From an uncultured delta proteobacterium (lineage in GTDB: Bacteria; Desulfobacterota; Binatia; UBA9968), in assembly GCA_963804165.1 (NCBI GenBank), contig CAWDPO010000026.1, positions 1 to 33,535 on the forward strand: 33,535 nucleotides of DNA, written 5' to 3'. The translations under genes were made by a program, and so were the position numbers. The notes under the pieces are model-generated. The model did not search any database. It saw only the letters and a program-made list of their open reading frames with translations, and was not told the origin of the DNA. This document shows positions 7,965 through 33,469 of the stretch, in pieces; position 1 is the first letter of the stretch, and each line of letters starts with the position of its first letter.

Positions 7965-8021
7965 CAAAAGATTTCTCCCTTGGAAGGTTTGTGCCTACTT
8001 GACCGACCGGCTAATGGGTGA
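7965..8021 (+). mobile_element. Orphan right end of IS1111-type element
   Basis: GGAAGGTTTGTGCCTACTTGACCGACCGGCTAATGGGTGA|CCC matches 26743-26782|CCC. Confidence 0.85.
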
Positions 8022-8118
8022 CCCTAAAACCTTCTATTTTTATGCTAGCTTATGTTGTTAAATTAAGAGATTGCCCTGGGCCGACCGGGGAAGGCTCCCG
8101 TCAAGCATTTAAAAAAGC

Positions 8119-24917: not shown

Positions 24918-25079
24918 ATGAGGATACATTTCCGTCGAGTTGACGGTTAAAGGAAGAAATGTTTTTGTTGGTTGATTTTGCGCTTATTGAGATTGCATTG
25001 AATTCTCCATCAATTCATTTCAGTGAATATGAAATTCGAGATTGGCTAGATTAGAAAGCCTGCCCCCCTGGTTTCCCCC

Positions 25080-25193
25080 CTTGAGAAACAATTCGCGATC
25101 GCCGGCGGTAAAAAACACCTTCTGGCGCGCGTTGCCGCGGCTCGTCAGATGATAGATCGCACCGGGAAACTCTAATCGCAGAGGGCGCGCCGT
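25080..25193 (-). pseudogene. 5' fragment of RAYT-like transposase (second family)
   Basis: (ACG)ARPLRLEFPGAIYHLTSRGNARQKVFFTAGDRELFL. Confidence 0.85.
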
Positions 25194-25303
25194 TGTTATC
25201 GGACGAAATGTGTTATTGCAAGACCTGATAATCATCTAGCCGGTTTCTCCAGTAGGCCGTAAGTTTGAGCGATCAAACTTTAGTGTCGAAGGAGGAGACG
25301 GAG

Positions 25304-26319
25304 ATGAAGTTGTACGGAGCGATCGATCTGCACTCGAATAACAACGTGACGGTGTTGATCGATGAACAAGATCAGGTTGTGTATCAAAAGCGGCTGCCCA
25401 ACGATCTGCCATTGATCGTCCAGCAGCTCTCAGGCTATCAGGACGCGCTCCAAGGCATTGTCGTGGAGTCGACCTTCAACTGGTACTGGCTGGTCGACGG
25501 CCTGATGGACCACGGACATCGTGTTCATCTGGCCAACACTGCCGCGATCCAACAATACGAGGGACTGAAGTACACCGACGATCATTCCGACGCCCGCTGG
25601 CTCGCCCACATTCTGAGATTGGGAGTATTGCCGCAGGGCTCCATCTATCCGAAAGAAGAGCGAGCGGTACGCGATCTGCTGCGCAAGCGCGGCCAGATGG
25701 TCCATCAAAGAACCACCAACCTGCTAAGCCTACAGAATCTGATCACGCGTAACACTGGGAGTTCGATCCGGTCCAATCGAATCAAGATGCTCGATAGCGA
25801 AACGGTCGACGCTCTTTTGCCCAATCAGGATTTAGCCCTGGCGGTCAAAGCCAACCTAGCCATGATCCAGTGTGCCGATGAACAGATCGATATCTTAGAG
25901 AGGACCGTCACCGAGAGGATAAAACTGAGAGCGGCGTTCAGCTTTCTTAAGACCGTGCCGGGCATCGGGCAGATTCTGGCGCTCACGATCATGCTGGAGA
26001 CCGGAGAGATAAGAGATTTCCCACGGTGGGAGACTTTGCTTCGTACTGCCGCTGTGTCGGGAGCCAGAAGTTAAGCAACGGCAAGAAGAAAGGCAGCGGC
26101 AATACCAAGAACGGCAACAAGTATTTGGCTTGGGCGTTTGTCGAAGCGGCCAACTTTGCCATCCGATACAATGCCAGGATCAAAAGCTTCTATCAGAGAA
26201 AGAAGGCCAAGAGCCATGGGGTGTTGGCAATCAAGGCGGTAGCGCACAAGTTGTGTCGTGCCTGTTACTACATCATGAAAGAACAGGTGGCCTTCGATGT
26301 CGCCAAGGCGTTTGCCTGA
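25304..26319 (+). pseudogene. IS110-family DEDD transposase/recombinase, one frameshift near 26020
   Basis: AAGGAGG RBS; AIDLH, VVES, KYTDDHSDA; L.TVPGIG; second frame FASYC...SNGK...KNGNKYL..AFVEAA, AVAHKL. Confidence 0.92.
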
Positions 26320-26334
26320 CCGAAAGGTTTCACG

Positions 26335-26640
26335 GCTGGGATGGGGCAGTGAGCTCGTGTAGAGGGTTGGTTCAAAACCACGAGGCCTGATTAGCCGCTG
26401 CTCCATCCCTGAAAACTAGACAACTCGGAGATGATTTGATCAGATGGTACGCCCACGCCGTGAGCCACACTTGGGTTGGACGCCCGAAAGGGTGAGCCAG
26501 GGGATCTGTGAATCCCATAACCTTGGACACGGCGTGGTACCGACAGTTTTCTGGGGCAAGAATTGTTGCCAGGGGCGGGGAAGAAATCTTTTTTAAGAAT
26601 TCTCCTATGCCTTGATCCTGATGGGTGACTGGTGCGGACC
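26335..26640 (+). ncRNA. Predicted bridge/seek RNA of the IS1111-type element
   Basis: Stem 26338-26349/26398-26409; segments matching target (GTAGAGGG, AGGCCTGA) and donor (AGATGATT, ATGGGTGA); boundaries approximate. Confidence 0.72.
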
Positions 26641-26789
26641 AAAATCCGATACCGACCGATTGAAAACAGGGGCGCGTGACCTAGACGACCAAACGCTGAC
26701 GAGTTGATACGATGGGAGAAGAAAAAGAAATTCTTCTCCGCGGGAAGGTCTGTGCCTACTTGACCTGCCGGCTAATGGGTGACCCCCCT

Positions 26790-26843
26790 GCTAACGATTG
26801 GAACGACTTGAACGGAGCGGAGCGGTGGAACGTTTGGAACGAC
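26790..26843. repeat. 9-bp TTGAACG/TGGAACG array
   Basis: AACGATTGGAACGACTTGAACGGAGCGGAGCGGTGGAACGTTTGGAACGAC. Confidence 0.75.
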
Positions 26844-26895
26844 TCCACGTCAATGCCTCTTGGGGCGGGTTCCAAACGGAATGAGCTGCTGATTA

Positions 26896-28469: not shown

Positions 28470-28693
28470 CTTTGGCATGTTAAGTTTGCCAAGGGCGGAA
28501 AGAAATTCTCTTGGAGAATTTTCCTTTACGCCTTGTGACTGGTGCGGACCCAGTTCTGACACCGACCGAAAAGAAAACAGGGGCGCGTCACTTAGACGAT
28601 CAAGCGCTGAGAGGTTCATTCAACCGGAGATGAAGGAAGATTCTTTTCTGCCGGAATGTTTGTGCCCACTTGAAACGGCCGGCTAATGGGTGA
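28470..28693 (+). mobile_element. Orphan 3' non-coding end of IS1111-type element
   Basis: Aligns with ~26550-26782 (GTGACTGGTGCGGACC, ACCGACCGA, GAAAACAGGGGCGCGT, CCGGCTAATGGGTGA|CCCC). Confidence 0.88.
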
Positions 28694-28726
28694 CCCCTAC
28701 GTTGCTCAAAAACAGGTTAGCCGGTG

Positions 28727-32185: not shown

Positions 32186-33469
32186 GTGTCAGAAGAAAAG
32201 CCTTTAGAACTGAGAGTCAGTGTGGACGTGGGATACCGTCGTCACAGTGTAGCGATGGGGTTATCCAGCGGCGAGGTGCTCGAAGAGTTCGAAGTCGATC
32301 ACCGGATCGAGGGTTTTCAAGAGTTCTTTTCTCGTATCGAGAGGCAACGTAAGACAAGGAACTGTCCGGTAGCCGTAGCCATGGAAGGTTACAACGGCTA
32401 CGCGCGGCCACTGGATAGCATGGTCCGTCAACGGGGCTACCGGCTTTATAATCTCAATAACTTAAAGTTTGCCCGGTTCAAGGAGATCTTTCCCGCAGCC
32501 GCCAAAAGTGACCGTATCGATGCGCGCAAGGGATTGGAGCTGTTTCAGTTGAGCGATCATCTGCCGTTGGCCAAAGAAGTGCTTCAGGAAGTCACTGGGA
32601 CACCGCCCGAGAATGAAGTCCTCAAACGATTAACGCGGCGCCGGCGACGATTAGTCAACGAGCGGGTGCGAGTGGTGAACAGTCTACAGGCCGATCTGCA
32701 AGCGGTGTGCCCTGGTTTGTTAGAGATCACTGGAGAAGCGAGCAATCAGTGGTTTTTAAATTTTCTTCTCAGCGCGGACACCCTGCCTCAGCTGGCCCGG
32801 TTACGGCGCAGCACAGTGCTGAAGATCCCCTCGGTGGGAGTGAAGTGTGCTGCCACTATCGAGGCCTGGCAGAAGCGTGCCCATTTTAGCCAAGAGGTTA
32901 AGTGGGTCGGCGAGATGATCCAAGAAGATGCCAAGCGGTGTCTCGAACTCGATGAAAAGATCAAACGGTTGGAAACCAAGATCGCCGAGGTTGCTAAGAA
33001 CTCCAAGATCGCCAAGATTTTACGATCGATTCCAGGGTTTGGTGCCGTGTGTACTTCAGAGTTGGCCGGAGAGATTGGAACCATTGAGCGGTTTGCCTCC
33101 GAAGGAAGTATTTCGTTGTATCTCGGCATGTCCACGTTGGACAACAGCTCGGGGAAGTATCAGGGAACTAAAGCACCCAAGCACGTGAACACTCGCGCCA
33201 AGGCAGCGATGATGATCGCCTTGGATCGGCATCGAAAGTACGTGCCGGAGTCGCAAAGATACTATGAAAAGAAGCGCAGCGAGGGAAAGAAACACAACCA
33301 GGCGATTCGAGCTCTAGGTCGGCACTTGTCCCGGATCATTTACAAAATGCTCACCGAAGAACGCGAGTACCAGATACGCCCCGAAAAAGGGAATACCAAG
33401 GCCAAGGTCAAATCGAGAGCGTTCGTTAAAACGCAAATACGGAGGCCGAAACTCTCGGCGAAGTCTTAA
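32186..33469 (+). CDS. IS110-family DEDD transposase/recombinase
   Basis: AAGGAGG RBS, GTG start; VSVDVG, VAMEG, KSDRIDA, LRSIPGFG, SSGK, ALGRHL; intact 427 aa. Confidence 0.95.
   Translation: MSEEKPLELRVSVDVGYRRHSVAMGLSSGEVLEEFEVDHRIEGFQEFFSRIERQRKTRNCPVAVAMEGYNGYARPLDSMVRQRGYRLYNLNNLKFARFKEIFPAAAKSDRIDARKGLELFQLSDHLPLAKEVLQEVTGTPPENEVLKRLTRRRRRLVNERVRVVNSLQADLQAVCPGLLEITGEASNQWFLNFLLSADTLPQLARLRRSTVLKIPSVGVKCAATIEAWQKRAHFSQEVKWVGEMIQEDAKRCLELDEKIKRLETKIAEVAKNSKIAKILRSIPGFGAVCTSELAGEIGTIERFASEGSISLYLGMSTLDNSSGKYQGTKAPKHVNTRAKAAMMIALDRHRKYVPESQRYYEKKRSEGKKHNQAIRALGRHLSRIIYKMLTEEREYQIRPEKGNTKAKVKSRAFVKTQIRRPKLSAKS

Follow-up and report, generated by a model that had tools for sequence, protein, structure and literature searches.

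Introduction

Elements of the IS1111 type have a long non-coding region (NCR) downstream of the transposase gene tnp, and their seekRNA has the complement of the top strand on the 5' side of the complement of the bottom strand, whereas IS110 types have the two the other way round (Siddiquee 2024, PMC11187229). According to the same text an RNA of 82-96 nt suffices for movement of ISEc11, a 145-170-nt 'long seekRNA' has no known role, and an IS1111 donor must be flanked by the correct target. The IS1111 bridge RNA has been placed in the right end, with the donor-binding nucleotides often in a multi-loop (Durrant et al. 2024). Here we describe a decayed IS1111-like insertion sequence (IS) in a 33,535-nt stretch of DNA from an uncultured delta proteobacterium (contig CAWDPO010000026.1 of assembly GCA_963804165.1, the whole stretch being referred to as the window). 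We consider it likely, from comparison with related elements, that its 3' NCR encodes a long guide RNA of the seekRNA or bridge RNA type, about 300 nt from 26338 to around 26655, with a second loop of target type.

The seekRNAs of ISEc11, ISPa11 and ISKpn4 (PMC11187229) resemble the present case in that the guide RNA lies downstream of a DEDD transposase gene with the same guide order, and in having sub-terminal inverted repeats, site-specific insertion and a longer RNA form. They differ in that the published long forms are 145-172 nt, compared with a conserved structured region of about 300 nt here, and in that a second loop with target-type guides is not described in the text of PMC11187229, although its supplementary folds may show otherwise.

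A first-pass annotation of the window had recognised an IS1111-type element with a guide RNA region in the 3' NCR, and the protein domains, the inverted repeats and the downstream position of the NCR agree with this. It had also described a structured 'insert' of about 170 nt, possibly an accessory RNA domain, within a donor loop. A conserved long structured RNA is indeed predicted there, but it is not an insertion into this copy, being found family-wide in many phyla, and in place of an accessory domain, 26446-26541 appears to be a second guide loop, with guides that follow the target flanks.

Results and Discussion

Two loops with guides that track the target flanks

Relatives of the element were collected in two sets. 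A DNA search of 61 related genomes with the NCR gave matches in 28, including seven loci with a full or nearly full NCR; many further matches were solo 3' fragments, for which no transposase lay within 1.5 kb, and one locus (L024, genome G005) enters only as one such fragment. Genome contigs scanned with a protein seed yielded 80 loci from many phyla, with transposases 50-84% identical. For the genome set, 73 NCRs were aligned with MAFFT and the mutual information of alignment columns with end and flank positions was calculated. The held-out set consisted of 80 metagenome loci fetched with the transposase of L066, which belongs to an often-retargeting clade, and guides were extracted from it only with profiles from the first set. 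In permutation tests flanks were shuffled among elements; identical guide/flank pairs were collapsed first, and n is the number after collapsing. Loci whose contig ended before a feature were excluded from the counts.

The ends of the element are nearly constant across the family, with (T/A)AATCAT(C/A)TAG on the left and CTAATGGGTG plus one base on the right. The left flanks end in ..YTGA or ..YCGA and the right flanks mostly begin with CCCC.., and we read the dinucleotide before both joints (TG, or CG in one clade) as the core. All of the 8-mers quoted in the first-pass annotation lie where it had placed them: GTAGAGGG at 26359-26366, AGGCCTGA at 26383-26390, AGACCTGA at 25221-25228, AATCATCT at 25230-25237, AGATGATT at 26429-26436, and ATGGGTGA at both 26621-26628 and 26775-26782. 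The coordinates of these and other features are collected in Table 1.

The outer stem of loop 1 shows compensatory changes in the consensus fold of 17 sequences, from which the CTCGTG/CACGAG pairing once offered as a competing fold is absent. Columns 26383-26387 of its left target guide (LTG1) are identical to left-flank positions LF-8 to LF-4 in 74-95% of about 60 sequences, and these are the strongest non-trivial mutual-information pairs. LTG1 follows the left flank in both sets (z=11 in the genome set; z=13.2, n=37 in the held-out set), as the right target guide (RTG1) follows the right flank (z=6.2; z=8.5, n=39), and in the genome set the observed value was reached by 0 of 5000 shuffles for either guide. 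LTG1 extends across the core, with TGAT where the left end begins with AT and TGAA where it begins with AA. RTG1 is the segment 5' of the central TGG, and in retargeted elements it matches the right flank closely (L068 and L041, 10/10; L088, 11/12; L064 and L188, 9/9). Both target guides of the first-pass annotation were therefore recovered, as they covary with the flanks both among the 73 relatives and among the 80 held-out loci; for the right-flank guide the register it quoted was not that of the family, which pairs less well with the flank of this copy. RTG1, complementary to the top strand, lies 5' of LTG1, complementary to the bottom strand. This right-before-left order had been noted as an oddity, and is the norm for published IS1111 seekRNAs (Siddiquee 2024, PMC11187229). 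Loop 1 reads as an ordinary IS1111 target-binding loop, with the right-flank guide 5' of the left-flank guide.

Loop 2 forms the core of the former 'insert', in which the stem strings CCACGCCGTG/CACGGCGTGG, CGCCC-GAAA-GGGTG and GGGAT/ATCCC had been correctly noted. A profile of 26437-26620 built from eight close sequences matches 56 of the 80 distant genome loci (nhmmer), and a loop-2 profile matches 71/80 held-out loci. For the consensus fold only sequences 85-135 nt long were kept and duplicates were removed, leaving 70 distinct sequences of 73; all 11 pairs of the closing stems show compensatory changes, in up to 30 of the 70 sequences at one pair. The layout, GAGCC(A), a variable stretch ending in GGG(T/A), TGG, a variable hairpin, CCA and a stretch ending in TG-T, runs parallel to the scaffold of loop 1 (GAGCT, RTG, TGG, hairpin, CCA, LTG). 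At eight loci that were inspected the two loops lay at separate places, with median starts 11 nt (loop 1) and 102 nt (loop 2) after the stop codon.

The two variable stretches of loop 2 behave as guides. L-guide 2 follows the left flank (z=5.6 in the genome set; z=10.2, n=54 held-out) and also LTG1 (z=8.1; z=8.6, n=45), and its column 26506 agrees with LF-4 with an identity of 0.93. In the held-out set it matches the flank at 7/7 positions in seven loci and at no fewer than 6/7 in 23 of 54, with 38 distinct flank 5-mers among the 54. Among related elements it varies in step with the targets, as CCAATG, GAATG, TTATG, GGTCTG, AAACTG or AGACCTG. R-guide 2 follows the right flank (z=3.1; z=5.6, n=47; examples are L068, L115, L144, L188 and L191). 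The element ends served as controls, and comparisons of L-guide 2 with the right end and of R-guide 2 with the left end were null in both sets. Loop 2 is thus a predicted structural paralogue of loop 1, both of whose guide segments track the target flanks and not the element ends. The extra conserved domain at this locus is genuine, and what deserves following up is its second loop of target type. Reading it as a guide to a second target motif in tandem does not hold generally, as a further TGNCCC within 60 nt is present in 9 of 53 unique right flanks compared with 2.6 expected.

In one metagenome element, L191, the left guide of loop 1 (TCCTCTGA) does not fit the left flank (TTGGCTGA), while the guide of loop 2 (ATGGCTG) does. 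This suggests that the two loops can diverge in specificity.

Table 1. Features of the IS1111-like element and its surroundings, in window positions
Feature	Position	Strand	Remarks
IS1111-like insertion sequence	25229-26782	+	1554 bp, decayed; limits set where the sequence common with the second copy in the assembly stops, same ends in relatives
Left flank, AGACCTGA	25221-25228	+	left half of target; core TG at 25226-25227
Left end	25229-25243	+	terminal extension TAATCATC and sub-terminal inverted repeat TAGCCGG at 25237-25243
DEDD transposase pseudogene	25304-26319	+	one base missing near 26010; overlapping open reading frames 25265-26074 and 26026-26319
Loop 1 module	26338-26409	+	outer stem, internal loop, central hairpin; consensus fold of 17 sequences
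RTG1	26357-26367	+	complementary to top strand of right flank; T26367 pairs with first post-core base
LTG1	26383-26391	+	same sequence as left flank, core TG and first 1-2 left-end bases
Right donor guide of first-pass annotation, AGATGATT	26429-26436	+	in variable linker not alignable across the family
Loop 2 module	26446-26541	+	closing stems 26454-26462/26528-26536 and 26465-66/26525-26
R-guide 2	26468-26476	+	complementary to first 4-6 right-flank bases, clade-specific first base included
L-guide 2, GGGGATCTGT	26500-26509	+	same sequence as left flank and core TG (26507-26508)
Two hairpins between loop 2 and internal right-end copy	26555-26613	+	consensus fold of close clade; second hairpin variable in sequence
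Internal right-end copy, GATGGGTGA	26620-26628	+	guide resembling a left donor guide (LDG); equals right end, core and first flank base; predicted single-stranded between hairpins
Terminal region	26631-26782	+	hairpin 26631-26654, variable part, TTGACC 26760-26765, CCGGCTA 26768-26774, ATGGGTGA 26775-26782
Right flank, CCCCCCTGCT	26783-26792	+	right half of target
Solo right-end relic of related element	28486-28697	+	ends in CTAATGGGTGA, then CCCC

An internal copy of the right end

Downstream of loop 2, an internal ATGGGTGA sits in the most conserved block of the NCR, ..CTTGATCCTGATGGGTGACTGGTGCG... This had been proposed as a guide for the right end, and its variation does follow that of the right end, the first flank base included (z=4.1 in the genome set; z=6.8, 18 unique of 57 held-out). 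Variants of the right end are mirrored in the internal copy (GGCTGA in L045 and L048, GTGTGG in L068, GAGTGT, and GGGTGT/G/C), and so is the post-core base, which is A, T or G by clade; column 26628 and the post-core base have an identity of 0.86 (n=63). The internal copy reaches into the first flank base, as LTG1 reaches into the first bases of the left end. Since the one equals right end plus flank base and the other left flank plus left-end bases, both left-type guides fit the junctions of an integrated element.

A comparable arrangement was seen in IS4321, a member of the classical IS1111 group whose sequence was taken from plasmid R751 by accession. It shares the inverted repeats, the 3' NCR and a right-flank guide, AAAACGG, 5' of a left-flank-like stretch, and about 70 nt after the target loop it has an internal 8-mer, ATAGATTC, equal to the right end plus the first flank base. 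It differs in the length of the NCR (269 nt, compared with 463 nt here) and in the distance from the target loop (LTG) to the internal right-end copy (about 70 nt, compared with about 230 nt here). As a single example, the internal ATAGATTC of IS4321 is a lead.

No conserved counterpart for the left end was found with perfect 7-mers, with an alignment of the linker or by mutual information with 14 and 40 end positions; short wobble-tolerant matches to the left end that can be seen by eye (GTGATT in relatives, TGATTA beside LTG1) are unproven. The first-pass annotation had assigned the left end to a right donor guide, AGATGATT at 26429, and had joined this with the right-end ATGGGTGA at 26621 in one donor loop, closed by GATCAG/TTGATC and with an accessory RNA of about 170 nt inserted. 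We consider this donor loop unlikely. Both 8-mers are present, only 239 of 5000 shuffled NCRs contain an 8-mer complement to the first 16 nt of the left end, and similar complements lie elsewhere in L036 and in a distant clade. However, for all the near-invariance of the left end, AGATGATT is found at that place in only 3 of 73 relatives (L001, L002 and L098), with a mutated form in the second copy in the assembly, and close relatives whose left end is identical carry AGGGGTTG or CGGTGCTG at this position. Perfect 7-mer complements to the first 14 left-end bases occur in only 10/63 elements and at three different places, which is chance frequency when compared with the 19% of shuffles (973/5000) that have a 7-mer complement to the first 16. 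The closing stem is missing from the consensus fold of 15 close relatives, and the domain that it would enclose has flank-matching guides of its own. The match of AGATGATT to the left end is probably due to chance or specific to a lineage, and a donor loop bridged by the insert is left unsupported because its right donor guide is not conserved. Of the four segments expected to covary with flanks or ends among homologues, both target guides and the internal right-end copy do so, and AGATGATT does not.

The scan of the insert against Rfam that had been suggested gave no match near the gathering score in 26300-26800, where E-value mode returned only four matches, all with an E-value of at least 2 and far below gathering; across the whole window there was no match at the gathering score.

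The terminal region and candidate expression

The last 150 nt of the element are conserved in relatives and in solo fragments, and the conservation of about 150 nt with a relic at 28.5 kb, described earlier, was confirmed (28486-28697 is 74.7% identical to 26566-26786). Within this region TTGACC is invariant among close relatives, and in distant ones TTGAC lies equally far from the end. At a circle junction TTGACC would face GATAAT with a 15-nt spacer or TAATCA with a 17-nt spacer, and we infer that it is the -35 element of a promoter at the junction, of the kind described for ISEc11. The NCR of the integrated copy gave no sigma-70-like promoter site and no terminator, the three terminator-like sites all lying outside the NCR.

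In four studies, four metatranscriptome runs gave contigs that cover parts of the element at a likeness of at least 85%. They include 26362-26529 (four differences), 26323-26624 (one 308-nt contig, 27 differences) and 26613-26777, and are a weak hint of guide-RNA expression.

Weighing the two-loop reading

Several observations weigh against a guide RNA with two target-type loops. In this copy the right target guide matches the right flank only partly and has one extra base (an alignment gap), and L-guide 2 matches the flank at 5/7 positions. L-guide 2 hardly varies in the closest clade (GGATYTG), where only the LF-4 position tracks the flank. R-guide 2 is short and pairs mostly with the near-constant CCCC, and elements with a CG core keep TG in L-guide 2 and in the internal right-end copy. 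The -10 element of the putative junction promoter would either need a 15-nt spacer (GATAAT) or be a poor hexamer (TAATCA). The RNA-library contigs derive from relatives, cannot show RNA ends and are possibly DNA carry-over. The permutation tests ignore the relatedness of the sequences, so that the z-scores are inflated; replication in the held-out set together with the individual retargeted cases is the stronger argument.

The elements with a CG core (L005, L006, L034, L035, L076, L160, L167 and L176) have CG in LTG1 only, which the model leaves unexplained.

Some of these points would also suit a vestigial loop 2, a non-functional duplicate resembling the flanks through shared ancestry or gene conversion between the loops. 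The scaffold common to both loops, the near-constancy of L-guide 2 in the closest clade and the lack of a correction for phylogeny all fit such a duplicate. However, pairing in the closing stems has been kept through many compensatory changes across phyla, L-guide 2 shifts with the flank in L066, L067, L100, L123, L133, L149, L153 and L188, and in L191 it is loop 2 that fits the flank better than loop 1. A loop without function is improbable on this evidence.

Very improbable is a modular element like ISPpu9, in which the internal ATGGGTGA would be an alternative right end at the DNA level and the last 154 nt would be separately mobile: this would account for the many solo right-end fragments without transposase, several BLAST matches begin near query position 305-310, L014 begins exactly at the internal site and ISPpu9 is a precedent, but the 5' ends of the solo fragments vary widely with no left-flank-like sequence before them and no common boundary, the internal site has no inverted repeat and is followed by CTGGTGCG, which does not resemble a target, nearly every full element across phyla retains the block, and in IS4321 an internal right-end copy occurs with no module of this kind. 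ISPpu9, which has the ssr9 module (Pares-Guillen et al. 2025), is like the present element in belonging to the IS110 family and in having extra conserved non-coding DNA after tnp, with solo copies elsewhere; it differs in that the solo fragments here are variably truncated at the 5' side and have no module boundary. An end-bounded downstream module with discrete solo copies, as in the ISPpu9 type of modular IS, was not found.

A possible synapse of two target DNAs

The guide RNA with two target-type loops can be compared with the bridge RNA of IS621 (Durrant et al. 2024; Hiraizumi et al. 2024). Both have two modules of stem, internal loop and hairpin in one RNA, the left-type guides of both contain the core dinucleotide, and the extensions of the guides across the core resemble handshake guides. 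In IS621 the RNA lies upstream of the gene and the guide order is the opposite. Furthermore, the second loop of IS621 binds the donor, that is the IS ends, whereas here the second loop tracks the flanks, the match to the right end is in a single-stranded segment of its own and no guide for the left end was found in the element. A second loop guiding both IS ends, with an LDG and a right donor guide (RDG), was thus not found here.

We suggest that a transposase tetramer would be loaded with two target-type loops, and because the tetramer would carry two such loops, the RNA could hold two target-like DNAs at once, namely the flanks of the resident copy, which IS1111 elements need for excision, and/or a new target. 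In this scheme the internal copy would read the right end, and the protein would recognise the left end via the sub-terminal inverted repeats. Expression would come from the promoter formed at the circle junction by TTGACC in the right end and GATAAT across the joint. As a leading guess, the role of the two loops may be flank-guided excision or 'direct transfer' of the junction to a target.

Such loading is plausible because IS1111 donors need target flanks and because cooperating RNAs have been proposed for CazIS110-1, where a truncated target-loop RNA and the bridge RNA would act together and a new target would receive the junction directly (Sun et al., bioRxiv 10.1101/2025.10.25.684509). 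In both proposals a synapse is formed by two target-binding loops, on the flank of the resident copy and on the new target. CazIS110-1 differs in being IS110-type and in having its loops on separate RNAs (a shortened target-binding-loop RNA alongside a full bridge RNA), compared with a single RNA here, and any likeness of action is inferred. More tentatively, and with somewhat more doubt than confidence, we propose that across a widespread IS1111-like family one RNA with two target-specific loops and a single-stranded right-end guide, in place of a target loop and a donor loop, hard-wires a synapse of two target DNAs. Just as tentatively, this synapse may bring together a new site and the resident copy's flanks, or, in excision, the two flanks. 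No description of an RNA with two target-binding loops was found in the running text of the bridge and seek RNA papers covered, where the term 'long seekRNA' appears solely in the Siddiquee paper and its preprint; such a loop may already be shown in Extended Data Fig. 10c or Supplementary Table 5 of Durrant, or in Supplementary Figs 6, 7 and 9 of Siddiquee.

If true, this would explain why IS1111 elements need matching donor flanks, and would amount to a natural version, in cis, of the 'direct transfer' route suggested for an IS110 element. The 'long seekRNA' would gain a candidate role, and re-programming would need changes in both loops. Bridge and seek RNAs are in development as programmable recombinases, with design rules that come almost wholly from IS621, with one target and one donor loop. 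If a large natural family reads its target twice and its own ends differently, the IS1111 branch would have a different synapse logic.

Identity and state of the element

A search of the assembly identified a second copy of the element on contig C28, 91% identical over 25221-26786. On the left, both copies share ..AG(A/G)CCTGA followed by the joint and TAATCATCTAGCCGG.., and on the right ..CCGGCTAATGGGTGA followed by the joint and CCCC; in the copy-to-copy alignment they diverge outside these limits. A25228 can be assigned to the left flank or to the left end. The sub-terminal inverted repeats (TAGCCGG at 25237-25243 and CCGGCTA at 26768-26774) have a length in the 7-17 bp range of the IS1111 group, and they covary, LE+12 to +14 being complementary to RE-14 to -12 in 91-94% of 54 relatives. 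As in the IS1111 group, the non-coding DNA is longer on the downstream side, with 463 nt 3' of tnp compared with 75 nt 5' of it.

Pfam places the transposase in the IS110 family, with PF01548 (E=2.4e-13) and with PF02371 on both pieces of the open reading frame (ORF). NF033542 ('IS110 family RNA-guided transposase') was matched by each piece under the cut-off, because the gene is split in two. Read through the frameshift, the transposase would have 338 codons; IS1111-group transposases have 330-350 aa. The coding span is 1013 nt in both copies of the assembly and 1014 nt in most relatives, and the missing base differs between the copies in the alignment (near 26010 here, near 25897 in the C28 copy), so that both are frameshifted pseudogenes. 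Since neither copy in the assembly has an intact transposase frame, the one at 25229-26782 is probably inactive. The element itself is an ordinary IS copy.

Compared with the IS4321 transposase the protein is 22% identical and collinear, with a weak pairwise E of 0.003. A tblastn search of plasmids gave 189 records at E<=1e-5, with no classical IS1111 members among them. The inverted repeats, the downstream NCR and the IS1111 guide order make the element a fit for the IS1111 group, as a distant subfamily.

Relics, target sites and neighbouring features

The relic at 28486-28697 is without 11 bases of the element, including most of the internal right-end copy. A further terminal piece of a right end, at 7973-8024, matches 26734-26785 over 52 bases with 88% identity. 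The genus has many solo 3' fragments, whose 5' ends vary, and in L008, L010 and L033 the last 12-16 bases are tandemly duplicated.

The left flank TTGCAAGACCTGA (25205-25228) recurs almost letter for letter at the insertion sites of L044, L051, L052, L054 and L056 in distant genomes, which suggests that the target is a widely conserved sequence. Empty AGRYCTGACCCC sites number only five in the genome, and three of these target-like sites (genome G000, contigs C6, C17 and C43) share the context (T)AGAATCCAG(A/G)(T/C)TCAGGCCTGACCCC. There are hints here that the natural target is a repeated host element.

To the left of the element is a minus-strand ORF (25020-25235), with the left flank just upstream of it; the ORF has no match in Pfam or NCBIfam and may resemble Y1/RAYT transposases. 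Close to the end of the window, 32186-33469 encodes a 427-aa IS110-type transposase (NF033542, 176 bits) that shares only a 48-aa local match with the IS1111-like transposase. To the right of the element, a repeat of about 45 bases at 26798-26845 recurs at 85-89% identity on contigs C34, C12, C11, C2 and C9.

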